The translations under genes and the position numbers were made by a program. From a virus (taxonomy: Duplodnaviria > Caudoviricetes), in the IMG/VR virus record IMGVR_UViG_3300032272_000012, positions 1 through 58,819 of that record: a DNA stretch of 58,819 bases. One strand, given 5' to 3'. The notes beneath the pieces were generated by a model, which worked only from the letters and a program-made list of their open reading frames with translations, made no database searches and was not told the origin of the DNA. Shown piece after piece: positions 3,948 to 26,550 of this stretch; the first letter of the stretch is position 1, and each line of letters opens with the position of its first letter.

Positions 3948-4154
3948 ATGAGATGTAAACTTTGGATATGCGCATACTGCAAAAATGCTACTCCTAAAAT
4001 AATGGAAGAAGACCCAACATTTATGCAGCCATATTGTTCAGTATTTAATTATTTTGTCGACCCAGTTGATTTTTGTGATGATCACGAATTAGAAGATAAA
4101 TGGAAAAGTGATAGTCACCCAACAAAAGAAAGTGAGGTGAATAAAGATGACTGA
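3948..4154 (+). CDS. Small Cys-rich protein (CxxC..C..CDxHE)
   Basis: AAGGA RBS. Same Cys pattern as the KAKCC family. Confidence 0.65.
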   Translation: MRCKLWICAYCKNATPKIMEEDPTFMQPYCSVFNYFVDPVDFCDDHELEDKWKSDSHPTKESEVNKDD

Positions 4155-4326
4155 AATTGATCACGAATGCACTTATGAAATTGTATGCCCATATTGTGGA
4201 TACGAGTTTTCAGATAGTTGGGAATACGCAGACGACAACCAAGATGAACATTGTGGCAAGTGCGGAAAATATTTTGAATACACAAGGGATGTTGACGTTA
4301 CTTATACCTCTAAACAAAAGGATTGA
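4147..4326 (+). CDS. 59-aa zinc-ribbon protein (CPYC..CGKC), absent from the ORF track
   Basis: GAGGTG RBS. MTEIDHECTYEIVCPYCG translated by hand. Confidence 0.7.
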   Translation: MTEIDHECTYEIVCPYCGYEFSDSWEYADDNQDEHCGKCGKYFEYTRDVDVTYTSKQKD

Positions 4327-4327
4327 A

Positions 4328-4765
4328 ATGACTGAAAAATACAAAGTAAGAAAAATAGGCACGGGCTGGGGTTTGTTTTGTTTGGATCAAAAAGACCCGA
4401 TTGAAACATCGCTGTTCGAAGGAATAATAATTGAGTTCGCTCGTAGAAAAAACTTAGAGTGTGATGAAGAAGCAGAAGCAGAGCTAGAAGAAAACTGCGA
4501 GAATTGTAAATTTTATATTGAAATAAACACACGAACACTAGAATCATTAAAACAAAGTTCAGAATTGGCCAAAGAATGGTTTAAAGGTATAAATGGAGCG
4601 TGTCAGAGATACCCACCAAGTATAAATATAGAAAAAGAATCAGATTATTTAAGAAATACTTTCCCATTAGTAAAACATAAAACTTGGTGCGGAGAGTGGC
4701 GCTCTAAAAGCAATAAAAAGAAATACATCAAAACACCTTATGGACCAATGGAGGTCATAGAATGA
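4328..4765 (+). CDS. Cys-rich hypothetical protein (CENC..CQRYPP..WCGEW)
   Basis: ATG directly after the upstream stop. Common phage Cys pattern. Confidence 0.7.
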   Translation: MTEKYKVRKIGTGWGLFCLDQKDPIETSLFEGIIIEFARRKNLECDEEAEAELEENCENCKFYIEINTRTLESLKQSSELAKEWFKGINGACQRYPPSINIEKESDYLRNTFPLVKHKTWCGEWRSKSNKKKYIKTPYGPMEVIE

Positions 4766-6708: not shown

Positions 6709-7077
6709 ATGCTTTGGCTTATGTACCATGTTGAGTGCGAAGAGTATGACCGTATGATTTGTGGTTCTGATGGGATACCGAAATCTATCAGAGAAAGAAA
6801 TCTTATAACTCATCACGCTCTTAAAATAAGACTTAAAGTGTTTCCTTTCCCAAAATTTGAATTTAAAGATATAGGGACACAACCAATAGGCACGTGGCAT
6901 GAAAAAATAATAGCTATTAGGTTGGTTGATCTTTCGTTAGATAGAGCTAAGATGGAATTGGATGCTATTAAAAAGGAATTGTATGGTGAACAAACACAAA
7001 TAAAAGAAAATATAATACCTCCCCCGACTCCAGACCCATCAGACGGTCGAAATATGAAAGGTGGTTGGATAACGTGA
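6709..7077 (+). CDS. Hypothetical protein
   Basis: 122-aa ORF. Start uncertain. Confidence 0.55.
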   Translation: MLWLMYHVECEEYDRMICGSDGIPKSIRERNLITHHALKIRLKVFPFPKFEFKDIGTQPIGTWHEKIIAIRLVDLSLDRAKMELDAIKKELYGEQTQIKENIIPPPTPDPSDGRNMKGGWIT

Positions 7078-7286
7078 ATAAAAGACAACGCAAGAAGAAG
7101 TTAAAGAACAAGTGTAGATGTTGTGCGTGTTGCTCTCATTTGGGTGGTTCATCTATTGATGGTGGTTACTCTCATGTATGGTGTAAAGAGTTGAAATGGG
7201 AAGGCATAGAGCATCATGATGAATTGCAAGAAAAAATAAAATGTTCTAAGTTTAAATTGATTCTTCTGAGGCAAGACGATGAATAA
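7074..7286 (+). CDS. Basic Cys-rich small protein (NKRQRKK leader)
   Basis: GTGA overlap. AAAGGTGG RBS. Confidence 0.6.
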   Translation: MNKRQRKKKLKNKCRCCACCSHLGGSSIDGGYSHVWCKELKWEGIEHHDELQEKIKCSKFKLILLRQDDE

Positions 7287-7458
7287 AAGGCAACGCAAAA
7301 AAGCACTTCAAACTAAAAGAAGAAAGTTTAATGAATGGTATATAGATAAACTGAGAGAAGGAACGACACGAAAATATAAGCCTAAGCCTAGTGAAATTAG
7401 AGGCCAGAGTGTTAGTTTTGTTATTGTAGACGATAATATCAAAGGTGGATCGGTGTGA
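7279..7458 (+). CDS. 59-aa basic protein (MNKRQRKK leader, C-terminal IRGQSVSFVIVDD), absent from the ORF track
   Basis: Translated by hand. Fills the gap exactly, with overlaps on both sides. Confidence 0.65.
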   Translation: MNKRQRKKALQTKRRKFNEWYIDKLREGTTRKYKPKPSEIRGQSVSFVIVDDNIKGGSV

Positions 7459-8177: not shown

Positions 8178-8180
8178 ATA

Positions 8181-8366
8181 ATGACTGAAATAAAGAAAGC
8201 AAAGTGCTGTGGGACGTGTAATTTTTACGATACGAAAGATGTTGATTCAATGTGTTGTGATGAAAACCAAGGATGTGATTTAGACATGGGAAAAGCGCCA
8301 ACGCCTATAGATGATTGCGACAAACACGAATGGAAAACCGAAAACGGAATGGACAGCGGTGGGTGA
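8181..8366 (+). CDS. KAKCC-family small Cys-rich protein
   Basis: MTEIKKAKCCGTC..CDKHEW. Confidence 0.75.
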   Translation: MTEIKKAKCCGTCNFYDTKDVDSMCCDENQGCDLDMGKAPTPIDDCDKHEWKTENGMDSGG

Positions 8367-8473
8367 GAAATGATTAAACATATATTTTTGCTTCCTTATT
8401 ATGTAGCAATGGCCAATTATATTGTTGATGAATTATTGGAAGAAATAGAAAAACAAGAATGGGAGACTGAAGG

Positions 8474-8845
8474 ATGATTTACAAAGTAGCAAAAGTAAAA
8501 AGTGTATTTTTTGGATTAGAAGATCACAGGATATTAACATTTTCAATCGGTTTAGATTATGGTGGTACTCACCAAGGTTTTGGTGGTTATGCTTTAGATA
8601 CATACGACAAAGAGAAAAAAAGGCGAGTTGGTTGCGCTGCTGGAACTGATTTAATTCTTAAATTATTAAACTTTTTTGAAGTAGAACAAATAACAGATAT
8701 AAATGGTAAGTATATCTATGCAGTACTTGACAAGGACAATATATGTGGGAGCATTATTGGATTAAAACAATTAGAACCTGATGGCAACAAAGAACTGTTG
8801 ATCAAAGACTGGAAAAATGAGTGGTTCCCAGACAAAAAAAATTAA
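8474..8845 (+). CDS. Conserved-looking phage hypothetical protein
   Basis: Motifs GLEDH and QGFGGYALD. Confidence 0.7.
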   Translation: MIYKVAKVKSVFFGLEDHRILTFSIGLDYGGTHQGFGGYALDTYDKEKKRRVGCAAGTDLILKLLNFFEVEQITDINGKYIYAVLDKDNICGSIIGLKQLEPDGNKELLIKDWKNEWFPDKKN

Positions 8846-8851
8846 ATAGAG

Positions 8852-9079
8852 GTGAAAATGAAACTATCAGACTTCAAAACAAAGCAACTGAGAGTACAAG
8901 AAATCGTAAGTGATGGGAAATTGCTATTAATGAAATTCCATCAAAAGAAGATCACATCTGCAAGGTTCACGATTAAGATGAAGAAATTGAATAAAGAACA
9001 AGATCAATTGATTGCAGAGTTAGAGCCGATTGTGAGTGATCCTAGCTTGATAGTTGACGACACTGAGCCAAAGAGCTAA
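8852..9079 (+). CDS. Hypothetical protein
   Basis: ORF with GAGGTG RBS. Confidence 0.6.
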   Translation: MKMKLSDFKTKQLRVQEIVSDGKLLLMKFHQKKITSARFTIKMKKLNKEQDQLIAELEPIVSDPSLIVDDTEPKS

Positions 9080-9108
9080 AATGAAACAAGAAAAGCTGAT
9101 GTATTCTT

Positions 9109-9156
9109 AGAAGCCGCTTTAGGTGCTATAACACCCATGATAAGCGGTTTCTTCTT
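9109..9156 (+). terminator. Extended stem-loop ending the first accessory operon
   Basis: AGAAGCCGCTT/AAGCGGTTTCT with an inner GGTG/CACC stem. Confidence 0.45.
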
Positions 9157-9236
9157 GCCTAAAATTCATCATTCCAATTTAGTTTAATCTAAAGTACAAT
9201 CGTTGTATCAAACTTAAACATTTAGGAGGTGAATAA

Positions 9237-9440
9237 ATGAACGAGAAACCAACTTTTGACAACGACCATGGTGGATTTCTGTGGGCTTTAATCGGGTTTT
9301 TAATACCAGTGGTAGGGCTAATTCTCTATTTCATCTGGAACGACGATAAACCCCGTAGATGCGAATCAATCAAAACAGGCTTCACAATCGGTTTTGTATG
9401 CTGGTTTGTAACGTGGGCCTTGGCTAATTGTGGAAGCTGA
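9237..9440 (+). CDS. Small two-TM membrane protein
   Basis: AGGAGGT RBS. WALIGFLIPVVGLILYFIW..KP motif. Confidence 0.75.
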   Translation: MNEKPTFDNDHGGFLWALIGFLIPVVGLILYFIWNDDKPRRCESIKTGFTIGFVCWFVTWALANCGS

Positions 9441-9446
9441 TTAAAA

Positions 9447-10361
9447 ATGACTGAAGAAAAAAAAGAACCGAACAAAAAAACAACTACCACCAAAAAAAAG
9501 GTGATTAAAAAGAAAATTGTCAAGAAAAAAGTAATTAAAAAAAAGATTGTGGAAAAACCTGTTATTAAAACTGAGTTGACTGATAAACAAATAAAAGCAG
9601 CTGGGGATAAAGAAGGAAAAAGGATTGAAAACCTACGTAAGAAGGTTAAAAAGCCAACAGCTAATCGTACTGAGCTAAAACAAAAGATGGTTGATTTTTT
9701 TGGAGAAGTTGTTCCAGCCAAAGAAGTCAAAAAAGAAACTGTTTACGCCACAAAATGCACACATGAGATTATCGAGGGTGTTACTAAATACATTCGTATG
9801 GGCTCGTTTATCGAGACAGCGTGCTTAATGAACAATATCAGTTATTCAGCCTACAAATCATGGATGAGACTAGGTGCTAGGCTTAAAGATGATGCAGTGA
9901 CATACGAAGAAAAATTAAAAATAAATCAGATCTATGAAAAATTTTATGATGCCATATCAATGGCAGAAGCAGAAAGCGAAACACACTATGTCAAGATCGT
10001 CGCAAAGGAAGCACAAGCTAATTGGAACGCTGCGAGGTTTATGCTATCCCAAAGGTTTAGAAAACACTGGAACAACGCACAAACAACAGTCACGCACCAA
10101 GGAAGCGTTGATAGTAATGTGAGTGGTACGATAGAGCATCAACACGTACTTTCAATAGACGAAAAACGTGATGCAATGAAAAAGTTAATGGATAGTGATG
10201 AAGCTCTTGACGCTGCATTTACGGTGCTACAAACACTAGACGGATCAAACCCAGATGAATTTTATGCTAGTGAAGAGGCGCAAAAAACTATAGGTGAATT
10301 GGAAGAAGAACAACTTAAAAAAGAAAAGGACGGTAGTAAACATGGAAGTGAAACAGCCTAA
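9447..10361 (+). CDS. terS: Terminase small subunit (putative), Lys-rich N-terminus
   Basis: HTH segment YIRMGSFIETAC..ISYSAYKSW, then FYDAISMAEAESE and NWNAARFML. Adjacent to ParB-N and MTase genes. Confidence 0.7.
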   Translation: MTEEKKEPNKKTTTTKKKVIKKKIVKKKVIKKKIVEKPVIKTELTDKQIKAAGDKEGKRIENLRKKVKKPTANRTELKQKMVDFFGEVVPAKEVKKETVYATKCTHEIIEGVTKYIRMGSFIETACLMNNISYSAYKSWMRLGARLKDDAVTYEEKLKINQIYEKFYDAISMAEAESETHYVKIVAKEAQANWNAARFMLSQRFRKHWNNAQTTVTHQGSVDSNVSGTIEHQHVLSIDEKRDAMKKLMDSDEALDAAFTVLQTLDGSNPDEFYASEEAQKTIGELEEEQLKKEKDGSKHGSETA

Positions 10362-10899
10362 GATTGAATTAGTTGATATTGAGAAATTAATTGATTATGT
10401 CAACAACGCAAAAACTCATAGTGAAGAACAGATTGAAAAGGTAGCGTCAAGCATCAAAGAATTTGGATTTATTAACCCGATCGTGATTGATAAAGACTTT
10501 GGAATTGTTGCTGGTCATTGCAGAAGCAAAAGCGCAAAAAAGCTTGGACTAACTAAAGTTCCTTGCATCATTGCAGACCACCTAACAGAAGCCCAAAAGA
10601 AAGCTTACGTGCTTGCAGACAACCGCCTAGCTGAGTTTGGTACAGGTTGGGATAAAGACCTATTAAAAATCGAGCTAGACGATATCAAAGACAATTTCAA
10701 CTTAGATGATATCGGGTTTGATGCTGGGTTTTTGAGTGAGTTGGATATTGATTTTAGTGTTGAGGGTGATACACAGTCAATTGATTCAACTAAAGATGAT
10801 AATGTTGACGGAGCTAAAGAATTTTCAGAAGATGATTTCAGTAAATTTGATAATCAATGCCCTAAATGTGGATTCGAGTTTGACAACAAGAAAGGTTAA
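10342..10899 (+). CDS. ParB/Srx N-terminal domain protein with C-terminal zinc ribbon (MTase-associated type)
   Basis: NNAKTH..SIKEFGFINPIVID..AGHCR..LADNR and CPKCG. Confidence 0.9.
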   Translation: MEVKQPKIELVDIEKLIDYVNNAKTHSEEQIEKVASSIKEFGFINPIVIDKDFGIVAGHCRSKSAKKLGLTKVPCIIADHLTEAQKKAYVLADNRLAEFGTGWDKDLLKIELDDIKDNFNLDDIGFDAGFLSELDIDFSVEGDTQSIDSTKDDNVDGAKEFSEDDFSKFDNQCPKCGFEFDNKKG

Positions 10900-10901
10900 A
10901 T

Positions 10902-11960
10902 ATGAAACATCCAAAGCTAGTTAATGGCCCGTGGTTTTTAAAAGATTTGAAAAGTGGAAAATTAGGAGCTCCAAAACTTAATAAAAAAGTTCTATCATGC
11001 TTTTGCTGTGGTGGCGGTTCAACTATGGGCTATAAACTAGCTGGGTATGATGTTCTAGGAGGGGTTGAAATTGACCCAGAAATGCAAAATATCTATGTTA
11101 AAAATCATAACCCTAAATATATGTTCAAAATGGGGGTAGGTGATTTTAATAAATTACCTCGTGAAAAAATACCTGATGAATTATTTGATTTAGATATACT
11201 TGATGGATCACCACCATGTTCTAGCTTTTCTATGGCTGGATCAAGAGAAAAAAAATGGGGAGTCGAAAAAAAATTTCGTGAAGGACAAGCCAAACAAGTT
11301 CTTGACGATTTATTCTTCACGTTCATTGAAACAGCTAAATTACTTCAACCTAAAGTTGTTGTCGCTGAAAATGTTAAAGGGCTCATTCAAGGTAATGCTC
11401 GTGGCTATGTGAAAGAAATATTCAAGGGATTAAAAGATGCTGGTTATGATAATGTACAGCTATTCCTTTTAAATTCTTCAAAAATGGGTGTTCCACAACG
11501 ACGAGAAAGAACTTTCTTTGTGGCTAACCGTCTTGGTAAAAAATTGAAGCTTGATTTTGATGAGAAAGAAATTTCTGTATTAGAAGCGTTTTCAAGTATT
11601 GAAAAAATAAACTACAAAGGAAAAGATTATTCAAAAAGTTCAATGGTTAAATATTGGGAGCAATGTTTACCGGGTGAGAGTTTTTCAAAATATCACCCCA
11701 AGGGTTCTTTGTTTGGTCAGACTAAACTGCCAAAACATAAACCGGTTGGAACACTTACATCAAAAGATTATCAATATTGGAGTAATGAGACACCTAGGGG
11801 GTTATCAAAACATGAGTGTTTTATATTGCAATCATACCCTCAAGATTATTTAGTTAAAAATGATGCTGAAGCAAAATATATATGCGGAATGTCAGTACCC
11901 CCATTCATGACACAAAGATTATCATTAGAAATTTATAAACAAATATTGCATGGAAAATAA
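10902..11960 (+). CDS. DNA (cytosine-5) methyltransferase
   Basis: FCCGGG (motif I), GSPPC (IV), ENV (VI), QRRER (VIII), GMSV (X). Confidence 0.93.
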   Translation: MKHPKLVNGPWFLKDLKSGKLGAPKLNKKVLSCFCCGGGSTMGYKLAGYDVLGGVEIDPEMQNIYVKNHNPKYMFKMGVGDFNKLPREKIPDELFDLDILDGSPPCSSFSMAGSREKKWGVEKKFREGQAKQVLDDLFFTFIETAKLLQPKVVVAENVKGLIQGNARGYVKEIFKGLKDAGYDNVQLFLLNSSKMGVPQRRERTFFVANRLGKKLKLDFDEKEISVLEAFSSIEKINYKGKDYSKSSMVKYWEQCLPGESFSKYHPKGSLFGQTKLPKHKPVGTLTSKDYQYWSNETPRGLSKHECFILQSYPQDYLVKNDAEAKYICGMSVPPFMTQRLSLEIYKQILHGK

Positions 11961-11962
11961 AA

Positions 11963-12160
11963 ATGAAAATAATCCCATTCAACGACATTAAATCAAAAAA
12001 ATTCTATCTGAAAGTTTACGACGATAATGGAAAGCTTGTATTCAAGAAAGCAACAGCACACGAGCCTAAAACCACGTTTAGATCGAGGTTAAAGGTCGTG
12101 CAAGACGAATGTAATAAAGTTGTTAGAAAAGGCGTTGAAAGCGAGATTAAGCGCAATTGA
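11963..12160 (+). CDS. Hypothetical protein
   Basis: Starts 2 bp after the MTase stop. Confidence 0.55.
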   Translation: MKIIPFNDIKSKKFYLKVYDDNGKLVFKKATAHEPKTTFRSRLKVVQDECNKVVRKGVESEIKRN

Positions 12161-12344
12161 ACTTGCTTTTTAAATCGTGTTGTTTCTCAAATGATTCGTA
12201 GTTGTCAATACCAACGTCTACGATCATTCTTAGGATTTCTTGCATAGGCTTACCTGTGTCCTCAGACAAAGATTTGAGCCTATCCCACGTTACTTTGGGT
12301 GCGTCGAGTGGGCCTCTTATGTGTTTGATCTTTTTGTTTTTCAT
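12147..12344 (-). CDS. Ribbon-helix-helix-like DNA-binding protein
   Basis: WDRLKSLSEDTGKPMQEILR pattern. Last gene of the minus-strand operon. Confidence 0.55.
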   Translation of the reverse strand: MKNKKIKHIRGPLDAPKVTWDRLKSLSEDTGKPMQEILRMIVDVGIDNYESFEKQHDLKSKFNCA

Positions 12345-12544
12345 TATAGCTCACCTTCAATCAAATTTTTCAAAACTGTTGCTTTCAGACAAAGATTTTG
12401 TATTGTTGTTTCTAAATCATTGTCTCGACACATTTTTAAAACGGCTATTTCTGTTTCAATAAAAATCAAATTCTTTTTTAGTTCTTTATTGTCGAATAAA
12501 GTGTACATTTTTTTATAAAATTCATTTAGATTTGTCATTATCAC
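12344..12544 (-). CDS. Hypothetical protein
   Basis: Coupled minus-strand operon. Confidence 0.6.
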   Translation of the reverse strand: MIMTNLNEFYKKMYTLFDNKELKKNLIFIETEIAVLKMCRDNDLETTIQNLCLKATVLKNLIEGEL

Positions 12545-12743
12545 TCCTTTTTTTTAATCCAGTTGATCCACAATCGCAATTATACCAAATGTTATCATTG
12601 CTATCGTATTTGTAGTTTGTGTTTGTAGTTTTGATATCGGTGCCACAACATTTACATTTTTTATTTATCACGACTGGTGGTTGTTGTAGGCGTTCAGTTA
12701 GTGAAAAATTTAGTTTGTTAGTTTCCATGTTGTGACCTTTCAT
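12522..12743 (-). CDS. Small zinc-ribbon protein
   Basis: CKCC..WYNCDCGST. Confidence 0.65.
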   Translation of the reverse strand: MKGHNMETNKLNFSLTERLQQPPVVINKKCKCCGTDIKTTNTNYKYDSNDNIWYNCDCGSTGLKKRSDNDKSK

Positions 12744-12747
12744 TTTA

Positions 12748-12990
12748 TTAATTAGTTAATTCATACTTTTCACGATCATCACGATTTATTTCATCTTCGT
12801 CTATTAAACATCCAATAAAATGATTATATGATTCAACTAATTCATTCTCATCAGCCCAATCTAGTTTTTTTTCTGATCTAATACCATCCAGATAATCTAT
12901 GTATATATCCACATATTTTGTGCTGTTCAGATTGTCATTTAAAAATTCTCTTGCTTCATCAATATTTAGTGTTTTTTTTGCGTTTAACAT
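12748..12990 (-). CDS. Acidic hypothetical protein
   Basis: GAGGTGG RBS. TAATG coupling. Confidence 0.65.
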   Translation of the reverse strand: MLNAKKTLNIDEAREFLNDNLNSTKYVDIYIDYLDGIRSEKKLDWADENELVESYNHFIGCLIDEDEINRDDREKYELTN

Positions 12991-13226
12991 TATACCACCT
13001 CAATTTTTGCAACTAATTTTATACCGCCTTCTTCCAACAAGTGCCTAACCTCGTAATAGCTGCCTTTTTTAACAATGTCATAATCTCGATTATTGATTGT
13101 TATTATTTTGCTACAATTAAAAAAACTAGTTGATCTGATATGCTTACATAAATCATCTAAAGTTGAGTAGTACATAATTTTCCTTTCGGTTTGAGTTAAC
13201 AATCTCTCTGCCTTGTTATAATACAC
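12990..13226 (-). CDS. Hypothetical protein
   Basis: First gene of the minus-strand operon. Start uncertain. Confidence 0.55.
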   Translation of the reverse strand: MYYNKAERLLTQTERKIMYYSTLDDLCKHIRSTSFFNCSKIITINNRDYDIVKKGSYYEVRHLLEEGGIKLVAKIEVV

Positions 13227-13375
13227 TTATCGAACATTGTACAATTTAATTTAATCTAATTTGTAAACACTTGATTATATTAAGAAAAACAAGCTACAAT
13301 TTATCGCTATATAATTGTTTACAAATTTTTTTAGTTAAACTAAAATAGCACATCTATTTCATTGAGGAGCTATGA
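13227..13375. promoter_or_regulatory. Divergent promoter region with operator-like palindrome at 13329-13345
   Basis: AT-rich gap between divergent operons. Contains TATAAT and TTTTAGTTAAACTAAAA. Confidence 0.6.
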
Positions 13376-13663
13376 ATGACCGAATCACAATCAGATCGAA
13401 ATTGCTATATATGCAATATTTCAGAAGAAAAACCGAATACGCATTATAGTTACACATGTACTGCCATTTATGGGTTTGAGCACTCCAAAAAACCTTGGGA
13501 CAATCTAAATACTCACAACCACAAAAAATTCGTATGCCCAGACTGCGTTTTAAAATTAGAAAAAAAATCTGGTGATATTTTTAGATCAATCGACAAGCTT
13601 GTTTATGATCATATTAAGGAATTGAAAGGGATGGCAAATGAAATCAGTAACAAAGATACTTGA
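13376..13663 (+). CDS. Zinc-finger hypothetical protein
   Basis: CYIC..CPDC. GAGGAG RBS. Confidence 0.7.
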   Translation: MTESQSDRNCYICNISEEKPNTHYSYTCTAIYGFEHSKKPWDNLNTHNHKKFVCPDCVLKLEKKSGDIFRSIDKLVYDHIKELKGMANEISNKDT

Positions 13664-13880
13664 ACGCATAACGCTGCAATCGAAATTAACGATGATCGGA
13701 GTATACGATATTAATGAAGCCCTACAAATCGCGTATGTAGCTGCTACACTTGGGATCACGACAGATGATTATAAGAAGCTTCGAAATGAGAAGAAATTGG
13801 ACTTTGAATTGAAAAGGAAAGGCGATGAAAAAAATAAACAAACTAGTAACAGTAACTGCCTCAACAAAAATCAAAGATAA
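13638..13880 (+). CDS. Hypothetical protein
   Basis: ORF in operon. Confidence 0.55.
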   Translation: MKSVTKILERITLQSKLTMIGVYDINEALQIAYVAATLGITTDDYKKLRNEKKLDFELKRKGDEKNKQTSNSNCLNKNQR

Positions 13881-14121
13881 AAAGAGAATTACTATATTTA
13901 ATACTAAAAACATAAATATTAGTTGGGATAATATTGAATCATACGAGCCACATCCAAACGGTACTTACCTAGTTTTAGATAGGAATGCAAAGGTATTTGT
14001 TATGAATAAATACGCTTCTAAATCAGTGTTTGGGAATGCACTCGAACTTGAATCTGTGCAAGAAATTCACTCGAAATTTTTTGGGCTTAAGACTGTTAAA
14101 CAAATTTGTGGGGTGCGTTGA
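13825..14121 (+). CDS. Hypothetical protein
   Basis: ORF with RBS. Confidence 0.6.
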   Translation: MKKINKLVTVTASTKIKDKKRITIFNTKNINISWDNIESYEPHPNGTYLVLDRNAKVFVMNKYASKSVFGNALELESVQEIHSKFFGLKTVKQICGVR

Positions 14122-14122
14122 T

Positions 14123-14341
14123 ATGCATGGTGGAGGCTATCCCAATCAAAAAGAACATGAAGCGCTTGATAGAGCTATGAGCGACCTAGTTGAAGCGAGA
14201 GTTAAGCATGAATTAGAATACAATCTATCAACATATGGTAGTAAGATAAAAAAAGAAATGGATCAGCTTATTGATATTATAAAAAGAAAAAATCAAGTAA
14301 TAAAACAATTAAGGGAAGAGCTATTAAACAGAAAGGGTTGA
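14123..14341 (+). CDS. Coiled-coil hypothetical protein
   Basis: ATG 1 bp after the upstream stop. Confidence 0.6.
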   Translation: MHGGGYPNQKEHEALDRAMSDLVEARVKHELEYNLSTYGSKIKKEMDQLIDIIKRKNQVIKQLREELLNRKG

Positions 14342-14342
14342 T

Positions 14343-14540
14343 ATGGCAGAAATAACAATAGAACAATGTGATAATGGTTATATTGTAAAAGCAAAAAGAG
14401 TTGAAAAAAAACATCACACAGCTATTACTGTGGAAAACAAATGGGTTGTTCAAATAGCAGGAAAAGAAGATTTGATTAATGCTGTAGAAGTAGCTTTTAA
14501 ATGGAAACAAGAGTTTTACAAGAAAAACGCAGAGAAATAG
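14343..14540 (+). CDS. Hypothetical protein
   Basis: ITIEQCDNGYIV motif. Confidence 0.65.
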   Translation: MAEITIEQCDNGYIVKAKRVEKKHHTAITVENKWVVQIAGKEDLINAVEVAFKWKQEFYKKNAEK

Positions 14541-14552
14541 GAATGTTAAATA

Positions 14553-14783
14553 ATGCTTTTTAAGAGGGAAATTATAGAATATTGTAGAACTGAAGCAAAA
14601 GACGTTTACGATGAAATGGCGAGTACAACAAGGAATCCAGAAGTAAAACTTTTGAGTTTCGTAGCGTTGTTTGAGTTAGCGATTTTAGATAGCTTAAAAA
14701 CAGAAAAAAACAAAATAGCTTTCGTGCAAGATACTTTGCATGATATCGAAAAATATATTGTTAGTGAAATTAGGAAAGGTTAA
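14553..14783 (+). CDS. Hypothetical protein
   Basis: ORF in operon. Confidence 0.6.
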   Translation: MLFKREIIEYCRTEAKDVYDEMASTTRNPEVKLLSFVALFELAILDSLKTEKNKIAFVQDTLHDIEKYIVSEIRKG

Positions 14784-14785
14784 AA

Positions 14786-15283
14786 ATGAGTTGTTATTGT
14801 AGCGTAGATAATGCGCCTTGTCAATACTGTGAAAACGGTGAAGCAACAGGTAGAGATTGTAAAAAATGCGAATTCGGTGAAATATACGAAGTGCATACTG
14901 AATGGTATGATAATGAATGGTGTAGTAATTGTAATTATAATAGTGAAGACGAAAAGGAAACAAAAATGGACGAAGAAAAAAAACCCAAATTTGAAATGAA
15001 TGAAGTTGTTTATTGTAAATTAAATGATGGAGGCTCTAATATTTTTATAGAACGAGGAAAAATATATTCTATCACTGATTGCTTAACTAGAGCAGGGTTT
15101 GAGTATAAAATAAAAACTAACAACTACAATTTCACAAGAGAAGAACATGAGATTGTAAAACTAGATAATGAAAGCCTATCAAAAAGTGTCGAGCTATACG
15201 AAACAATCAAAAAAGCACACGATGAAATTGAAAGAGCAATGTTCAAGGTATTTAATTCAGAGGCTAAAAATGATGAAGATTAA
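14786..15283 (+). CDS. Cys-rich domain fused to a small beta domain
   Basis: Eight Cys in the first 50 aa. An internal RBS and ATG precede MDEEKKPKF. Confidence 0.65.
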   Translation: MSCYCSVDNAPCQYCENGEATGRDCKKCEFGEIYEVHTEWYDNEWCSNCNYNSEDEKETKMDEEKKPKFEMNEVVYCKLNDGGSNIFIERGKIYSITDCLTRAGFEYKIKTNNYNFTREEHEIVKLDNESLSKSVELYETIKKAHDEIERAMFKVFNSEAKNDED

Positions 15284-15468
15284 AACAAAATCAAAATGCG
15301 AGTGGTGCAAAGGCTTAGAGGGTATGGGGTGTGTTTGTAGTGCGTGTGGGAGGTGGTTGTAATCAAATGCAAATAATCATAAAATTAATAATATGTTTAC
15401 TAGTCTCAATCCTAGCCAGCGTGATTGTTTTGATTGCGTTGGTTTTGGTTGGGCTTTGAGGGAGAATT

Positions 15469-16527
15469 GTGAAAACTGAAATTCTTTTTAAAGAAAATTA
15501 TGATGGACATGAGCACAATGTGTCACTTTTCATATATGATGAAAGCGGAATGGATCTTCATTGTCAGACTGGTAGCAGCCACCACAAGGCAATTGAGAAA
15601 GCAACTAAAATATTAAACAAGAGAGGCTTATCAGTTGGTAAGCTTGAATTTATCGGGCCAACGGGTGCTTATTATCCTGTTGAAAAAATAAAGGTGGAAA
15701 AAATGACTAAATTAAAAAGCATGAAATTTAAGGTTGGTGGTGATGTTGAACTAACAAATAATATATTAGATCAATTAAAAAAAATGGGATACAAAACAAA
15801 GTTAATGGGAGTGAAAACGCAATATATTTATGCACATTTCGATGCTACTATTACTCACAGTACTTCGCCTAATGATAAATTTTTTCCAGAATATCCATTA
15901 AAAACATACGACGATATAAAAGAAAAAGACGCATATGCAAATTACATGTGTTTAAAATGCAATTTAAAAATGCTTTCAGCAAGTAATCCTCCAAGTTGTC
16001 ATCAGTGTGGTATTTTTGGAAATGTAGTACAATACTACGTTAGTATAGACAAATCAAACGGAACAGACAAAACAGGTATTTTAACAGGTCATACAGAAAA
16101 TGGAGTGATTAAAGTGGATGAATTTAAGACTGTAGAAAACGAGTATAATATTAATTTCCAAACAGCTATGGAATTAGCTGAAAAGGAAGGGAAGAAATTT
16201 TTAGGTGAGAAAATAGATAAAGATACAGTTTTTTATTACGATGAATTTCATGGAAAACATAGTTTAAAGGATATAGAAACAGGAATAGTGTCAAGTATAA
16301 CAATTAATTTTAATTTTGTAGATCAGATGTTCAAAGAGTACAAACCAGAGCCAAAAATTATCAGTTGGTTTCGGCCTAAGCATGTTTGGCATGAAAGTGA
16401 TGATTTCCATACTCTATACACAGGTAGAAGTTATAAAAGCAAAGAAGAGTACAATCCAAGTTCAAGTGTGAAAGTTGTAGAATGGATTGAAGAAAAACAT
16501 CCAGAAACATGGGAGCAATGCGAATGA
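15469..16527 (+). CDS. Multi-module hypothetical protein
   Basis: 352 aa. Contains a CxxC..CxxC zinc ribbon and several internal start-like junctions. Confidence 0.7.
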   Translation: MKTEILFKENYDGHEHNVSLFIYDESGMDLHCQTGSSHHKAIEKATKILNKRGLSVGKLEFIGPTGAYYPVEKIKVEKMTKLKSMKFKVGGDVELTNNILDQLKKMGYKTKLMGVKTQYIYAHFDATITHSTSPNDKFFPEYPLKTYDDIKEKDAYANYMCLKCNLKMLSASNPPSCHQCGIFGNVVQYYVSIDKSNGTDKTGILTGHTENGVIKVDEFKTVENEYNINFQTAMELAEKEGKKFLGEKIDKDTVFYYDEFHGKHSLKDIETGIVSSITINFNFVDQMFKEYKPEPKIISWFRPKHVWHESDDFHTLYTGRSYKSKEEYNPSSSVKVVEWIEEKHPETWEQCE

Positions 16528-16658
16528 CCCCAATCCTAAAAAAATGCTGGTCTTGTGATCACTGCAAAATAACTGGATTAAAACAGGGGTTTTGTAAATC
16601 GCATAAAATTTCGGTGTGGTCTATGATGGAGTGTAAAAGGTGGGTGCGGAGTGAGTGA
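16524..16658 (+). CDS. 44-aa Cys-rich protein related to the KAKCC family
   Basis: MTPILKKCWSCDHC, translated by hand. ATGA overlap. Confidence 0.55.
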   Translation: MTPILKKCWSCDHCKITGLKQGFCKSHKISVWSMMECKRWVRSE

Positions 16659-16789
16659 AGATTTAGATGTGAGACTAAAAGATTTAATCATAAATACATG
16701 TAATAAAATTGGTTGTGATGATTGTGGTTTGCAAAATGGTGACGATGGTGAATGTGCTATGACTGATTTGCAAGATAGGATTAATGAAA

Positions 16790-17158
16790 ATGAGTAAATT
16801 AAAAGACGGAGAGCCTTGTGGTAAACATGCTGGGTGTTTAAATCATGTATCTCATCCATGCGAAGGGTGTGGAAGAATAAATGGGAAAAGTGTTATGCCT
16901 GAATTAAAAAATGTTGAAATTTATAGTGTATCCTTGGTTGAAGAAGGTGGTTATCCCTTTAAGAAAGTGAAAAGTAATGTTGTGAATAAGATCAAGAAAG
17001 CTAAGTGCTGCGAAGATTGTAAATTTTTTGATGCTTCTTATTTTTCTGGTGTAATGGAAAGAACTGGTAAATGTAAAAAGCACGATAAAGCTTTGGATAT
17101 AACTAGTATTTGTAAAGAGCATAAACCACACGAAAAGGATGCTTTCTATGTCGATTAA
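16790..17158 (+). CDS. Cys/His domain fused to a KAKCC module
   Basis: PCGKHAGCLNHVSHPCEGC, then KIKKAKCCEDC from about 16982. Confidence 0.7.
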   Translation: MSKLKDGEPCGKHAGCLNHVSHPCEGCGRINGKSVMPELKNVEIYSVSLVEEGGYPFKKVKSNVVNKIKKAKCCEDCKFFDASYFSGVMERTGKCKKHDKALDITSICKEHKPHEKDAFYVD

Positions 17159-17300
17159 GAAAGCTAAATGCTGTGGGACGTGTAAGTTTTGGTGGGCTGA
17201 TCCATTTGACGATTATGAAGCTGAATGTAAATTAAAATTTAAACGTAATGTAAATTGCTGCCAAGTATGCGACAAGCACGAATGGAATGAAGATGAATGA
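17148..17300 (+). CDS. KAKCC-family protein (50 aa), absent from the ORF track
   Basis: MSIKKAKCCGTC..CDKHEW, translated by hand. Confidence 0.75.
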   Translation: MSIKKAKCCGTCKFWWADPFDDYEAECKLKFKRNVNCCQVCDKHEWNEDE

Positions 17301-17436
17301 TGTTGATTGTTGTCAGACATGTGCAATAAAATATAAAATAGGTAGTCATTATTGGTGTCCTGTTAAAAAGAAGATTTTAGATTCATGGGATTTAATGATT
17401 TATTCATGTGGTGATTGGAAGGATGAAGATGAATGA
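17293..17436 (+). CDS. 47-aa CCxxC protein, absent from the ORF track
   Basis: MNDVDCCQTC..WCPV..SCGDW, translated by hand. Confidence 0.65.
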   Translation: MNDVDCCQTCAIKYKIGSHYWCPVKKKILDSWDLMIYSCGDWKDEDE

Positions 17437-17623
17437 TTGTTTAGCTATACAGCCGATTCATTATTTTTTTATGGGTGTTTCTAGCACATGTTTTTTTACT
17501 TTTATTTGTTACTTAGTTACTTTGAAAATACATAAAGAAATGGCAGATCGTATTTTTAATTTAGGTTTTTTAGCAACTTTTGTAATGAATATTATATTTT
17601 TGATAATGAATATTATGGATTGA
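17429..17623 (+). CDS. Small two-TM membrane protein
   Basis: Two hydrophobic helices. Overlap start. Confidence 0.6.
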   Translation: MNDCLAIQPIHYFFMGVSSTCFFTFICYLVTLKIHKEMADRIFNLGFLATFVMNIIFLIMNIMD

Positions 17624-17627
17624 TACA

Positions 17628-17810
17628 ATGACTGAAATAAAGAAAGCTAAGTGCTGCGAAGAAAACTTTGTTAAACTTCTAGAAGTAGTTGAAGTGATAT
17701 CAGAAGATGTATCGCTGTCATCTCCTAACAGTTGCGTGGGAAGGTCTTATAATGGCCATATTGAGATGTGTAAAGAAGTTTTAAAGAAAGTGTTGGAATC
17801 AAATGAATGA
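17628..17810 (+). CDS. KAKCC leader fused to an unrelated body
   Basis: MTEIKKAKCCEE followed by a helical sequence lacking the family Cys pattern. Confidence 0.65.
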   Translation: MTEIKKAKCCEENFVKLLEVVEVISEDVSLSSPNSCVGRSYNGHIEMCKEVLKKVLESNE

Positions 17811-18000
17811 GATAAAAGAAGCTAAATGCTGTGGAAACTGTAAATTTTTTTTAGAAGTAGCAGAGTATTGTGATGTTCATAAAATTGGATATAAGAACGG
17901 ATATGATTTAGATCACTCTTATATTTGTGACAGTCACGAACATAGAGAAAATCATGATGAAGATGTTATTTTTAATAGTGAATGGGAGAATGATGTATGA
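17803..18000 (+). CDS. KAKCC-family protein
   Basis: MNEIKEAKCCGNC..CDSHE. Confidence 0.75.
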   Translation: MNEIKEAKCCGNCKFFLEVAEYCDVHKIGYKNGYDLDHSYICDSHEHRENHDEDVIFNSEWENDV

Positions 18001-18515
18001 CTATAAAATTATTTGGTGCGATAGACTTTTGTATAGAAGCGCACAGAGGACAGAAAAGAAAATACTCAGGAGAAGATTACGCAACACACCCTATGGCTGT
18101 AGCAATGCTATGCCAAGCGTATATGCTAGAACCAGATGCTGTTATAGCTGCGGTGTTGCATGATGTTATTGAAGACACAGACACAACCATAGATGAAATC
18201 AAATGCCTTTTTGGTGATAGTGTAGCTAAATTAGTGCTAGAAGTTACTGATGTTTCTAAACCAAGCGATGGGAACAGAAAAGTTAGAAAGCAAAAAGACT
18301 TGGAACATTTAGCTAAAGCTAGTCATTTGGGAAAGTCTATTAAGCTTGCAGACTTGATACACAATACACAATCTATAGTTAAACATGATATTGGTTTTGC
18401 TAAAATTTATTTGGAAGAAAAAACACAGTTATTAAAAGTTTTAAAAGACGGTAATGGTTTTCTGTATCAGATGGCTATGCATGTTTTGGAAGAAGGAAAA
18501 AAATGTCTGAAATAA
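17997..18515 (+). CDS. HD-domain small alarmone hydrolase ((p)ppGpp hydrolase, SpoT-HD/Mesh1-like)
   Basis: AHRGQKRK..Y..HP, AAVLHDVIEDT, IKLADLIHN. Confidence 0.9.
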   Translation: MTIKLFGAIDFCIEAHRGQKRKYSGEDYATHPMAVAMLCQAYMLEPDAVIAAVLHDVIEDTDTTIDEIKCLFGDSVAKLVLEVTDVSKPSDGNRKVRKQKDLEHLAKASHLGKSIKLADLIHNTQSIVKHDIGFAKIYLEEKTQLLKVLKDGNGFLYQMAMHVLEEGKKCLK

Positions 18516-18667
18516 AAGAAGCAAAATGCTGCGAGCACTGTAAAAGATATTGTAATGAAATTACTGGAGAGCCACATCAATGCATGTTACATGACTATCT
18601 TAGAGACACAAAACCAACAAATACATGTGACGAGTATGAATGTGATGAATGGAGCGAAGATGAATAG
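18503..18667 (+). CDS. KAKCC-family protein (54 aa), absent from the ORF track
   Basis: MSEIKEAKCCEHC..CDEW, translated by hand. Confidence 0.75.
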   Translation: MSEIKEAKCCEHCKRYCNEITGEPHQCMLHDYLRDTKPTNTCDEYECDEWSEDE

Positions 18668-18779
18668 CAGAAGTCACCATGCAAACAGTTGTTTGTTAAA
18701 AGCAATATTTTTAGCAGTTTTTTTCTCTATAATCCTATGTGCGTTTTTCTTTTACTTACTTGGGAAGCATTGGGGTTAA
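18660..18779 (+). CDS. Small membrane peptide
   Basis: Overlap start. One TM helix. Confidence 0.5.
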   Translation: MNSRSHHANSCLLKAIFLAVFFSIILCAFFFYLLGKHWG

Positions 18780-18780
18780 G

Positions 18781-18966
18781 ATGACTGAAATCGAAAAGCA
18801 AATCAAAAAAGATGAAGATAAGCTTTACAGGAAAATGATTAAACCAATTCTCAAATCAATTGCACAGTTTGTACTCTTTGTGATATTCTTGAATTATCAT
18901 TCAAACGATGAGTTTCAAAAAATGGTGTTTGTGGGGTTTCTAATCTTGTTTAGTCTTTTAATGTGA
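18781..18966 (+). CDS. Small membrane protein
   Basis: Two hydrophobic segments. Confidence 0.55.
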   Translation: MTEIEKQIKKDEDKLYRKMIKPILKSIAQFVLFVIFLNYHSNDEFQKMVFVGFLILFSLLM

Positions 18967-18969
18967 GGT

Positions 18970-19245
18970 TTGATTGTGGGAAAAAGAAAAAACGATACAA
19001 TAATAATATCTATGATCTTACTTCTATTCGTTGCAGCTGGATTTGTAGTCGTTCAGCTTGAGAAAGCTAAGAAAAGCATACCTGAGCCGAAACCCCAAAG
19101 TATAGAATATCTCATTAAAAGAAATTTAAGGACTGTGTGTTTGGAGGGTGTTACTTATTGGGTCAAATACCCTTTCGGAAATTATGGCTTTCTAGCAGCT
19201 AAATACGACACGATTACGGGGGAAATTGAGCGATGCGAAAACTAA
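18970..19245 (+). CDS. Membrane-anchored small protein
   Basis: TM helix, then VCLEGVTYW..C. Confidence 0.65.
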   Translation: MIVGKRKNDTIIISMILLLFVAAGFVVVQLEKAKKSIPEPKPQSIEYLIKRNLRTVCLEGVTYWVKYPFGNYGFLAAKYDTITGEIERCEN

Positions 19246-19451
19246 TATTTATTCTGGTCTGTGTTTGGCTTTCAGCTTGCTTTGAATTTCCAGACTACCA
19301 GTGCGACAAAAAAGAACAAGCTAAGTTTGTTTTGAGTTGTATTGAAAACATGACAAATGGGCTTGAAGAAATGGACACAACCCTTTCATATTCTATTCCT
19401 AATAACTGCAAAGATCTATCGAGGGAACTGTACTGCTATGCTGAGGACTAA
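19233..19451 (+). CDS. Small four-Cys lipoprotein
   Basis: LSAC lipobox. Paralogous to 20313-20618. Confidence 0.65.
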   Translation: MRKLIFILVCVWLSACFEFPDYQCDKKEQAKFVLSCIENMTNGLEEMDTTLSYSIPNNCKDLSRELYCYAED

Positions 19452-19713
19452 TACTTGCTCAGTTTGTGACGGCTCAAAAACAAACATGTTTGGCTTCAAA
19501 TGTAGAAAGTGTAACGAGTATGGAATTTTGTCTGTAGACCGTGAGCACGTTGTTTGTCCGTACTGTGGCCACGACCACGATAAGAAACAAGTAGAAATTA
19601 ATGGAGACAGCGATTTATTTGATTGCCATGGTTGTCAAAAACAATTTAAAGTCGAAATAAAATACACAGCTTTGGTTTCAACTTTCATTTTAAAAAAAAA
19701 GAAAAAAACATGA
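19438..19713 (+). CDS. Double zinc-ribbon protein
   Basis: Four CxxC pairs. Confidence 0.65.
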   Translation: MLRTNTCSVCDGSKTNMFGFKCRKCNEYGILSVDREHVVCPYCGHDHDKKQVEINGDSDLFDCHGCQKQFKVEIKYTALVSTFILKKKKKT

Positions 19714-19904
19714 AAAAAGAAAATAATATCATCGAACTAAATAATAGCTTCAAAGAAGCAAAACAATATCATGACATGATGACTAAGCAAGAAGATGATC
19801 GAATAAAATTGTTAGGATATAAACTCATCATTGGATTTGGCGTTGTGATGTTTTTGTTTGGTGTATTTTGGGGAGCATTTGGAGCGTGGGCATTTGGAAA
19901 TTAG
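19710..19904 (+). CDS. Small protein with a C-terminal TM helix
   Basis: ATGA overlap. Confidence 0.6.
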   Translation: MKKENNIIELNNSFKEAKQYHDMMTKQEDDRIKLLGYKLIIGFGVVMFLFGVFWGAFGAWAFGN

Positions 19905-20079
19905 CAAAAAAGAAATCTTGATCCAAAAGAGAGTAAGGTGTTGCTACAATTGTACTCACGTTAAGAAAAAAACAGCACACACCTTGTTTTGTATGCACCC
20001 ATGGGCTTCCAAAGAAATTTCACACGGTATAACTTCCCACGATTCTGTTTGCCAAAAACATGAGCCAACCAAAAAATAA
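19894..20079 (+). CDS. CCxxC protein related to the KAKCC family
   Basis: RVRCCYNC..CQKHE. Confidence 0.6.
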   Translation: MEISKKEILIQKRVRCCYNCTHVKKKTAHTLFCMHPWASKEISHGITSHDSVCQKHEPTKK

Positions 20080-25859: not shown

Positions 25860-25878
25860 TTTTAAAAAAGGACGTTTA

Positions 25879-26550
25879 ATGAAGACACCAAAAAAATCAA
25901 TGGAAATAATAATAGAAAATCAATATGAAAATCATTATCTTGATTATCCTTTTATAAAAGAATGTAGCGATAAAATTATTCAATTAAAAGAAAACGGTGG
26001 TGGTAACTTAATTGTCGAGTTGCCACCTAGAACTTCAAAAACAACATTTTTTGCTAATGCTGTTCCAGCTTGGTTTAGCGGTAATTATCCAAAGGAAAAT
26101 ATTCTTATTGGTTCAAATCTTAAAGAATCAATTCAAAAATTTAAAAGCTGTATTCACACTGGTAGATATGATTTGTGTAAAGTATTTAGTATCATTGATA
26201 GGAGGTATGATTTAATGATTTTTGATGACCCAATGAAAATGAATGAATCAAAAAACTCAGAAGTAAACAAATGGTTTTTAGAATCTTTATTAACAAGAAG
26301 ACAAGAAAATTGTGTTACAATTATTGTTATGAGTAGAGTTTTAAAAAATGATATTGCTGGCATTTTACGCAAAGAAAAAGATTGGAATATATTAAGTTAT
26401 CCAATGTTAAGTGAAAAATTTGCGAATATAAAAATTAATCCAATGCTAAGAAAACACCCTAATGCGAATATTAATCATGCAGATCATTTAAAACACACAT
26501 TAGGAATAAATTTATTTGATGCTATGTATCAACAAAGCCCAAAAAAATAG
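25879..26550 (+). CDS. Degenerate TerL ATPase-domain paralog without the nuclease domain
   Basis: Colinear with the TerL N-domain: GGGNLIVELPPRTSKT, LMIFDD, LLTR, DIAG, AMYQQSP. Confidence 0.85.
   Translation: MKTPKKSMEIIIENQYENHYLDYPFIKECSDKIIQLKENGGGNLIVELPPRTSKTTFFANAVPAWFSGNYPKENILIGSNLKESIQKFKSCIHTGRYDLCKVFSIIDRRYDLMIFDDPMKMNESKNSEVNKWFLESLLTRRQENCVTIIVMSRVLKNDIAGILRKEKDWNILSYPMLSEKFANIKINPMLRKHPNANINHADHLKHTLGINLFDAMYQQSPKK

Follow-up and report, generated by a model that had tools for sequence, protein, structure and literature searches.

Small four-cysteine phage proteins, probably of HiPIP type, form a paralogous family that appears to evolve by recombination at conserved coding motifs

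Introduction

High-potential iron-sulfur proteins (HiPIPs) in their classical form are exported periplasmic electron carriers with a signal peptide. A 2026 review (PMC13450708) likens the small subunits of glycyl radical enzymes, which have [4Fe-4S] clusters, to HiPIPs; these subunits are cytoplasmic, protein-binding accessory subunits and not electron carriers. Therefore, mini-proteins with a HiPIP fold can be protein-binding subunits. With regard to phage variability, two systems are pertinent: the gp38 adhesins of T-even phages, in which conserved glycine-rich motifs separate hypervariable segments (Trojet et al. 2011, PMC3157838), and the PeSL cassettes of T4-type phages, through which modules are shuffled in hyperplastic regions (Arbiol et al. 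2010, PMC2839356). Here, we describe a family of cysteine-rich proteins encoded by dispersed mini-genes in a sediment virus of the Caudoviricetes (IMG/VR record IMGVR_UViG_3300032272_000012). The window, i.e., the whole stretch of DNA analyzed, covers this complete record (58,819 bp) and has direct terminal repeats.

Our preferred reading, to which we assign a probability of roughly 0.55, is that these mini-genes represent a phage paralog family of cytoplasmic HiPIP-type proteins of 50–65 amino acids (aa) which evolve by recombination. We observed a family with four invariant cysteines and a mosaic pattern among its relatives, and located the breakpoints of that pattern. The close relatives employed were the metagenome contigs L007, L008 and L009, 93–99% identical to the window in the flanking DNA, together with contigs of a related variant from a second, independent study (the X2 run); parts of the region without X2 cover were left uninterpreted.

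Results

A family of four-cysteine mini-proteins in the window

The original prediction, made from the DNA letters, described mini-genes sharing an IK(K/E)AKCC leader. A back-translated IK[KE]AKCC pattern gave six matches, all of them on the plus strand (8190, 16991, 17154, 17637, 17812 and 18512), against none in 100 dinucleotide shuffles (six seen vs. zero expected), and these coincided with all six of the predicted sites (8181, 16982 inside the open reading frame (ORF) 16784–17158, 17148, 17628, 17803 and 18503). The first 29 nucleotides (nt) from 8181 and 17628 showed one mismatch, as had been stated. Five of the leader sites head intact proteins of 50–65 aa, while the sixth, 17628, heads an unrelated body.

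Membership was then assessed with hidden Markov models (HMMs) built solely from sequences outside the window, which avoids circularity. The targets were the 851 stop-to-stop frames of at least 30 aa in the window, for which the best reversed-sequence control was 0.83. The five intact core members were recovered at E-values from 5e-19 to 1e-11. The genes concerned are the following, where A8 is our 29-sequence alignment of the family and the A and B types are those of the 8181 locus described below.

8181–8366, plus strand: core member m8181, 61 aa; external HMM E 5e-19; A-type leader and middle, B-type tail
16784–17158, plus strand: 124-aa ORF whose C-terminal part, 16982–17158, is a core member; external HMM E 1e-11 over residues 71–124
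17148–17300, plus strand: core member m17148, 50 aa; external HMM E 5e-17
17803–18000, plus strand: core member m17803, 65 aa; external HMM E 1.4e-11; stop codon overlapping the HD hydrolase start
18503–18667, plus strand: core member m18503, 54 aa; external HMM E 1.2e-13; orthologues P0005 and P0016
17628–17810, plus strand: leader-only member; MTEIKKAKCC, then a body without the second Cys of CxxC; HMM match at profile positions 1–10 or 5–16
3948–4154, plus strand: distant member, 68 aa; external HMM E 3.6e-5 (851 frames)
19894–20079, plus strand: distant member, 61 aa from a TTG start; E 2.8e-4 with the broad and 0.99 with the strict external HMM
16524–16658, plus strand: four-Cys mini-gene; relative by pattern alone, aligning on the four Cys in A8
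17287–17436, plus strand: four-Cys mini-gene with an acidic ..WKDEDE tail; relative by pattern alone, aligning on the four Cys in A8

In the ORF 16784–17158, the N-terminal 37 aa constitute an additional Cys-rich extension; the relative P0001, an 87-aa protein, starts downstream of it. The earlier description of 17628 as a leader on an unrelated body was confirmed, since the HMMs matched only its first 10–12 residues and local alignments of the body to other members did not score above shuffles in five of five cases. A resemblance of this body to 17803 past the leader was rejected, with 1753 of 2000 shuffles scoring equally high. With regard to the looser relatives that had been proposed, 3948 and 19894 were borne out, in contrast to 16524 and 17287 (given as 17293), which the outside-window HMMs missed at E ≤ 1 and which have in common with the family the four-Cys pattern and the position in the cluster only; the 17287–17436 gene is conserved in L007. 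The window holds five intact core copies, one decayed or chimeric copy and two distant ones.

In A8, the only invariant columns were the four Cys (CxxC ... C ... C), spaced CxxC-x(10–18)-C-x(10–17)-C in most members. The proposed pattern CCxxC..C..CxxHE therefore stood as to its four Cys, but not as to its His, which is replaced by Y, W, F or K elsewhere: both this His, in CDKHE, and the leading Cys of the CC pair characterize the strict family without being universal. Strict relatives start with MxxI(K/E)KAKCCGTCKH(W/Y/F) and end with ..CDKHEW(S)EDE, and their middles cannot be aligned.

A profile search of 1.84 billion representative proteins returned 15 matches at E ≤ 0.001, four of them the window's own proteins, and word-indexed searches of 5.8 billion clusters returned 17 and 16. 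The KAKCCGTC motif was also present in more distant single-copy relatives. Distant relatives were found in a 136-kb IMG/VR phage contig (L010) and in a phage contig of high G+C content (L006) encoding a helicase, a methyltransferase and a central tail fibre, a second variant being protein P0029. No family was assigned to the members by Pfam or PHROGs. Searches of viral contigs for loci related to P0007 found none, and the A7 profile run against genome contigs gave seven pattern matches and one relative, with no locus returned. Two IMG/VR loci matching the leader DNA pattern were dismissed as chance, given that neither lies in a Cys mini-protein ORF and both overlap an opposite-strand 586-aa ORF. 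DUF6472 was likewise discarded: it was a lead from the ESM Atlas only (score 0.88), and its model, run against all six frames of the window, hit none of the members. The ESM Atlas otherwise yielded unnamed small viral clusters.

Among cultured phages, tblastn of P0009 found only an ORF with a similar motif in a Rhizobium N4-like phage, at a non-significant E of 0.7. This ORF (L011 1504–1689; phage RHph_X3_15, QWY83715) encodes a 61-aa hypothetical protein adjoining early RNA polymerase genes, with the pattern ..RKACSTCKHW ... GAC ... VCYDH; the match is suggestive, and this cultured N4-like phage may thus encode a distant relative. In L008, a 61-aa mini-gene with CxxCKY ... VC ... WCGMW (1538–1723, P0028) lies between genes that are adjacent in the window, and P0028 aligns with the family on the four Cys.

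Similar motifs were noted in three further places. A tiny ORF, 15270–15362, ending ..KIKTKSKCEWCKGLEGMGCVCSACGRWL, resembles a truncated member, and L007 and X2 have an insertion directly after it, at 15363|15364. The C-terminal half of the ORF 4157–4765 (likely start near 4329) contains a similar, more widely spaced CxxCKFY ... GAC ... WCGEW. An X2 contig joint, 3944>4501, ends in the CxxC motif of the same ORF and is too short to be relied on.

The predicted fold weakly resembles HiPIP-type cluster domains

An AlphaFold (AF2) model of P0012, built on the 29-sequence alignment, reached a predicted local distance difference test score (pLDDT) of 77.5 and a predicted template modeling score (pTM) of 0.51, with three of five models above a pLDDT of 70. 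In a Foldseek comparison with the PDB, ranks 1–12 were all HiPIPs or small subunits of glycyl radical enzymes (best E 0.34). In line with this, VIA-align against 48,161 chains gave 11 matches with Z ≥ 2, and the 10 listed all belonged to these same two groups, at Z 4.2–3.1, the best being 2y8n_B (Z 4.2, root-mean-square deviation (rmsd) 2.5, 46 residues aligned) and 1hlq_A (Z 4.0). So did all 14 entries listed by a second structure comparison. On 1b0y (Z 3.6, rmsd 2.4 over 44 residues), model residues 4–49 superposed on chain residues 37–85, i.e., the C-terminal, cluster-binding part. With the 1b0y ligand numbering that we take to be 43, 46, 63 and 77, the four invariant Cys would fall on the ligand positions. 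Cys77 is stated as a HiPIP ligand in the title of entry 1js2.

The A8 profile was also run against 177,635 PDB sequences. The top four matches were two entries for the beta subunit of benzylsuccinate synthase (BSS), then PioC and the small subunit of 4-hydroxyphenylacetate decarboxylase (HPAD) among them (E 0.34–0.56), with all four Cys in register. PioC, which we take to be a HiPIP, has an AK.CGTC motif like that of the leader, and BSS beta (4pkf_B, E 0.34) has a ..C.RHE end like CDKHE. The two CxxC knuckles of a zinc ribbon or rubredoxin are absent from the family, in which the first pair alone forms CxxC and the third and fourth Cys are single.

A HiPIP-like fold with an iron-sulfur cluster is therefore likely on the basis of the predicted model and of profile matches below significance, and we consider it probable that the four-Cys domain works like a HiPIP-type cluster domain, without membership of the Pfam family being implied. 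This agrees with the idea of a constant metal-binding scaffold with variable loops put forward in the original prediction, in that the four Cys are invariant and the predicted fold matches, weakly, only proteins of HiPIP type. Each protein would comprise little beyond a HiPIP-type four-Cys core, most likely holding a [4Fe-4S] cluster; the tail (..CDKHEW plus the acidic end) would supply the fourth Cys, and the two loops between the Cys would be free to vary.

The leader is conserved at the protein level

The leader (..KAKCCGTCKH[WFY]) would then be the first metal-binding motif of the four-Cys domain, a CxxC plus an aromatic residue. Across 12 DNA copies of it, synonymous codons varied at 11 of the 13 positions shown (ATA/ATC/ATT, AAA/AAG, GCT/GCA/GCC, TGC/TGT and GGA/GGG/GGC), so that stretches of exact identity are short among the paralogs. 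The phage of high G+C content keeps the leader residues with different codons. As synonymous sites vary and the residues recur in that phage and in the 136-kb one, selection acts on the leader peptide and not on its DNA, the leader being a functional protein element.

Middles are exchanged between conserved ends at the 8181 locus

In L008 and L009, the 8181 locus carries two tandem members (A and B) each, compared to one in the window. Both contigs lose homology to the window where the leader ends (8221) and regain it at the Cys of CDKHEW (8316). Leaders at this locus were 82–94% identical in all pairs, middles only 51–57%, which is the level of unrelated sequence under the same scoring, and tails 84–96% in orthologous pairs and about 60% between A and B types. 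Since A and A', and likewise B and B', share positions yet have unrelated middles of unequal length, the middles have been replaced and not point-mutated. The m8181 leader is 91–94% identical to the A genes of L008 and L009, whereas its tail is 96% identical to L008 B; its middle agrees at 23 of 24 positions with that of P0006/P0018, proteins whose tails are A-like. On the simplest reading of these sequences, A and B were fused at CDKHEW to give m8181. A joint in X2, 8221>16988, is most likely not a true deletion but the second leader of two tandem members, as in L008.

Another shared N-terminal leader, MNKRQRKK, begins a set of unrelated small genes (window 7065–7458, L008 87–438 and, on the minus strand, L009 116–331 of the reverse complement), of which two are Cys-rich. 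Breakpoints between the window and its relatives lie about 20 nt into it, at 7294/7302.

Stop/start junctions and breakpoints in the 16.5–18.9 kb cluster

As described in the original prediction, gene ends in the cluster share a junction whose internal ATG opens the next frame each time, with GAAGATGAATGA at 17300 and 17436 and GAAGATGAATAG at 18667.

17289–17300, plus strand: stop/start overlap junction GAAGATGAATGA; recurs at 17425–17436 and, as GAAGATGAATAG, at 18656–18667; related form AATGAATGA at 17802–17810

The general form, GAAGATGAAT(GA/AG), encodes the acidic ..EDE tail plus the stop. The following gene has its ATG 8 nt ahead of the junction end, so that tail and stop overlap it by 8 nt (ATGAATGA). 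The 3948 gene is linked to its neighbor at 4147 by a comparable overlap, ATGACTGA. It is because of this overlap that many genes of the region start with MTE, MNE or MND. In addition, unrelated genes at 4147, 8181, 17628 and 18778 (also 9447) share the start ATGACTGAAAT (MTEI..).

Four events were delimited in the cluster. Firstly, 15463–16523 is absent from L007 and X2, an indel of 1061 bp whose right end is the ATG of the mini-gene 16524. Further, 16672–17152 is replaced in L007 and homology returns at 17153, in the leader of 17148; the L007 copy of m17148 is 96% identical and starts with MTEIKK. L007 also lacks 17647–18837, and with it two members and the HD hydrolase; the left end of this indel (17646) lies inside the 17628 leader, and its right-hand partner is the membrane-protein gene 18778. 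Finally, an X2 contig joins 16787 to 17801, which removes five genes, with AAATGA on both sides at two stop/start junctions. Four of the eight boundaries of these events lie at a member's start or leader. Together with those of the 8181 locus, the homology boundaries in relatives fall at 8180, 8221, 8316, 16524, 17153, 17646 and 17801.

Shuffling through microhomology in leaders and junctions, as originally proposed, was partly supported, because several breakpoints lie at the leader, at CDKHEW or at a stop/start junction; the part of the proposal in which the leader is conserved for recombination did not hold, given its varying synonymous sites. The breakpoint evidence comes from few relatives, and phage mosaics favor gene boundaries in general. 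In mechanistic terms, protein-level selection would keep the two ends alike and a reused 8-nt stop/start overlap joins the genes, so that exchanges would land there, with the result that middles are replaced, genes fused, and whole members gained or lost.

Two described mechanisms were found not to apply. There was no enrichment of the promoter-like sites (52, with 52.8 expected) or terminator-like sites (7, with 4.9 expected) that intergenic PeSL-type units would bring, and the genes overlap, which rules out a PeSL-type cassette. A scan of 83 window ORFs (25 + 58) with PHROGs and Pfam revealed no reverse transcriptase family, no long repeat of the gene middles that could serve as a template was found, and the middles are of unequal length; hence, the genes are not targets of a diversity-generating retroelement.

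Genomic setting

The window encodes a large terminase, portal, major head protein, sheath, tape measure and baseplate, i.e., a contractile-tailed phage, as well as a ParB-like protein, a cytosine-type DNA methyltransferase, an RNA ligase and RecT. The phage is distant from all cultured ones: megablast of the region against cultured phages gave no match, and no isolate has a capsid protein more than 44% identical to that of the window. From 3.2 to 24 kb, short and mostly overlapping plus-strand ORFs stand in a row, hardly any of them with a Pfam family. In this accessory (early) region, the family members lie beside ORFans, small membrane proteins and an HD_4 hydrolase. The latter is flanked, as had been noted, by the members 17803–18000 and 18503–18667, which overlap its two ends.

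17997–18515, plus strand: HD_4 phosphohydrolase (RelA/SpoT-type hydrolase domain); Pfam HD_4 E 5.5e-18, phrog_990 E 4e-42; a neighbor and non-member
54048–54953, plus strand: RecT-like single-strand annealing protein; phrog_148 E 3.9e-80; candidate agent of the exchanges

Several other features of the genome were noted. Directly after the full-length large terminase ORF (469 aa) comes one of 223 aa, two stretches of which again match large-terminase families (window 24450–26550); the shorter ORF may be a duplicated or split fragment. A small-terminase-like protein (9447–10361, phrog_4102 E 7e-18) with a lysine-rich repeat N-terminus is encoded 14 kb upstream of the large terminase, and X2 contigs show small indels within this repeat. 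A minus-strand island of five small genes (12147–13226) breaks the plus-strand run, with negative GC skew; one of the minus-strand genes, 12522–12743, contains KKCKCCGTD, yet has no match to the Cys mini-protein family. Near the genome end, 57713–58393 on the minus strand encodes a domain of the CAP/cysteine-rich secretory protein family (Pfam E 1e-23).

Discussion

Weighing the HiPIP-type reading

A number of observations weigh against recombining mini-proteins of HiPIP type. None of the structure or sequence matches is significant alone (Foldseek E 0.34, Z 4.2, profile E 0.34), and the structural and profile evidence both derive from one alignment. The first AF2 model, based on 19 sequences, was poor (pLDDT 55) and was not used, and the first profile (A2) gave four matches among the PDB sequences, with no HiPIP-type chain. 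Pfam HIPIP (PF01355) recognized 0 of 25 members at E ≤ 10, and its six-frame search of the window gave two weak matches, neither at a member but both in the ORF 4157–4765 (E 0.072 and 0.0058). Pfam HPIP_like (PF18524, the HPAD small subunit domain) had no match at E ≤ 10 in the six-frame window search. The first Cys stands 8–9 residues past the start codon with no hydrophobic N-terminal segment, which leaves no room for a signal peptide. The fifth conserved Cys (of the CC pair) in the strict family is unexplained by the HiPIP model, and some of the proteins in BFVD that resemble the model are labeled zinc finger or zinc ribbon. As for the recombination itself, breakpoints at conserved ends may in part reflect survivorship, in that only in-frame recombinants persist.

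These labels lead to the alternative that the proteins are Zn(Cys)4 mini-domains without an iron-sulfur cluster, with paralogy, variable loops and mosaic exchange as before. Four invariant Cys could equally bind zinc, 3 of the 50 BFVD look-alikes listed are named zinc finger, zinc ribbon or TFIIS, and the window contains many small CxxC..CxxC zinc-ribbon-like ORFs. However, the second half of the family domain has single cysteines and no CxxC knuckle, all the listed PDB matches with Z ≥ 3 were [4Fe-4S] proteins of HiPIP type, with zero zinc fingers among them, and the first and the last Cys motif are each followed by an aromatic residue, which is a HiPIP feature; we regard zinc binding, the main alternative, as somewhat unlikely. 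A different objection concerns the selected unit: leader and junction might, as in a strong form of the original proposal, be kept as DNA microhomology for RecT-driven cassette shuffling, the protein being secondary. Breakpoints at leader, tail and junction are what this would produce, a recT gene is present, and the second shared start, MNKRQRKK, also lies at breakpoints (7294/7302). Nevertheless, leader synonymous sites vary freely among paralogs and exact identity is short, the residues are kept with other codons in the phage of high G+C content and also in solved HiPIP-type proteins, and the junction follows from the acidic protein tail plus the 8-nt stop/start overlap, all of which make this explanation improbable. 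A conserved leader with a hypervariable core also brings to mind the precursors of a Cys-rich natural product of the RiPP type (ribosomally synthesized and post-translationally modified), in keeping with 50–65 aa, a conserved N-terminus, a hypervariable middle and many copies. Here, however, the C-terminus is conserved too, the four Cys extend along the whole length, a compact fold is predicted, and no radical SAM, cyclase, protease or transporter family was detected among the 83 window ORFs scanned, so that this origin appears very unlikely.

Possible function

For HiPIP-type mini-proteins, an accessory role in host interaction is suggested by the lack of a signal peptide, the setting among ORFans, membrane proteins and HD_4, the gain, loss and recombination of members, and variation confined to the loops. 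Our guess is that the cluster would act as a rigid scaffold on which the loops bind host proteins, for takeover or counter-defense. Binding of host proteins through the loops, counter-defense included, is a tentative idea that we find possible but doubtful. Going further, the members might amount to a repertoire of iron-sulfur mini-binders, each a rigid scaffold of about 50 aa whose two loops are exchanged between alleles and paralogs by motif-guided recombination; every phage variant would then have its own set of binders for host proteins of defense or metabolism, a combinatorial, cassette-based counter-defense, which we hold to be unlikely. Redox or iron-related roles are also possible.

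Iron-sulfur mini-proteins are no recognized class among phage accessory genes. If the cluster were confirmed, the family would be a new kind of fast-evolving phage gene family and would offer a natural [4Fe-4S] domain of very small size in which nearly any loop sequence is tolerated, which is of interest for protein engineering. The locus is also an unusually clean natural case of short coding motifs and reused stop/start overlaps channeling phage recombination, and near-identical variants for comparison are available from two independently sequenced sediment samples.

Comparison with known systems

A literature search on cysteine-rich hypervariable phage families found nothing, and a search for HiPIPs in phages, judged by titles and the opening lines of abstracts, brought up no work on phage-encoded HiPIPs. 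Many small uncharacterized phage proteins in BFVD show a similar predicted fold (best E 0.011, Foldseek probability 0.99–1.0 in the top rows), two of them automatically labeled High potential iron-sulfur protein (like); the likeness is one of predicted structure. A HiPIP-like fold class in phages is therefore not new, though unstudied; new here are the at least five copies, the hypervariable loops and the motif-bounded exchange.

HiPIPs themselves (PF01355; PioC 6xyv, 1hlq, 1isu, 1b0y) share the CxxC..C..C arrangement, and the model superposes on their cluster-binding C-terminal two thirds (Z 3.2–4.2). In contrast, the phage proteins are shorter (50–65 aa), lack an N-terminal extension and a signal peptide, are unrecognized by Pfam, and form a multi-copy family with hypervariable loops and, in strict members, an extra Cys (CC). 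The glycyl-radical-enzyme small subunits (BSS beta/gamma, HPAD gamma, MASS beta/gamma) gave the best structural and profile matches, none of them significant. They differ with regard to a partner enzyme: the PHROGs and Pfam scan of 83 window ORFs turned up neither a glycyl radical enzyme nor an activase.

With regard to variability, gp38 is similar in that short conserved coding motifs form a structural core and bound easily swapped segments. However, the gp38 adhesin belongs to the virion and is encoded once per genome, while the genes described here are dispersed, non-structural mini-genes with a predicted metal site. In the PeSL system, small accessory genes are likewise inserted, deleted or replaced between near-identical phages at short repeats; there, the repeats are intergenic promoter and stem-loop units, whereas in this window the genes overlap and the repeats are coding.

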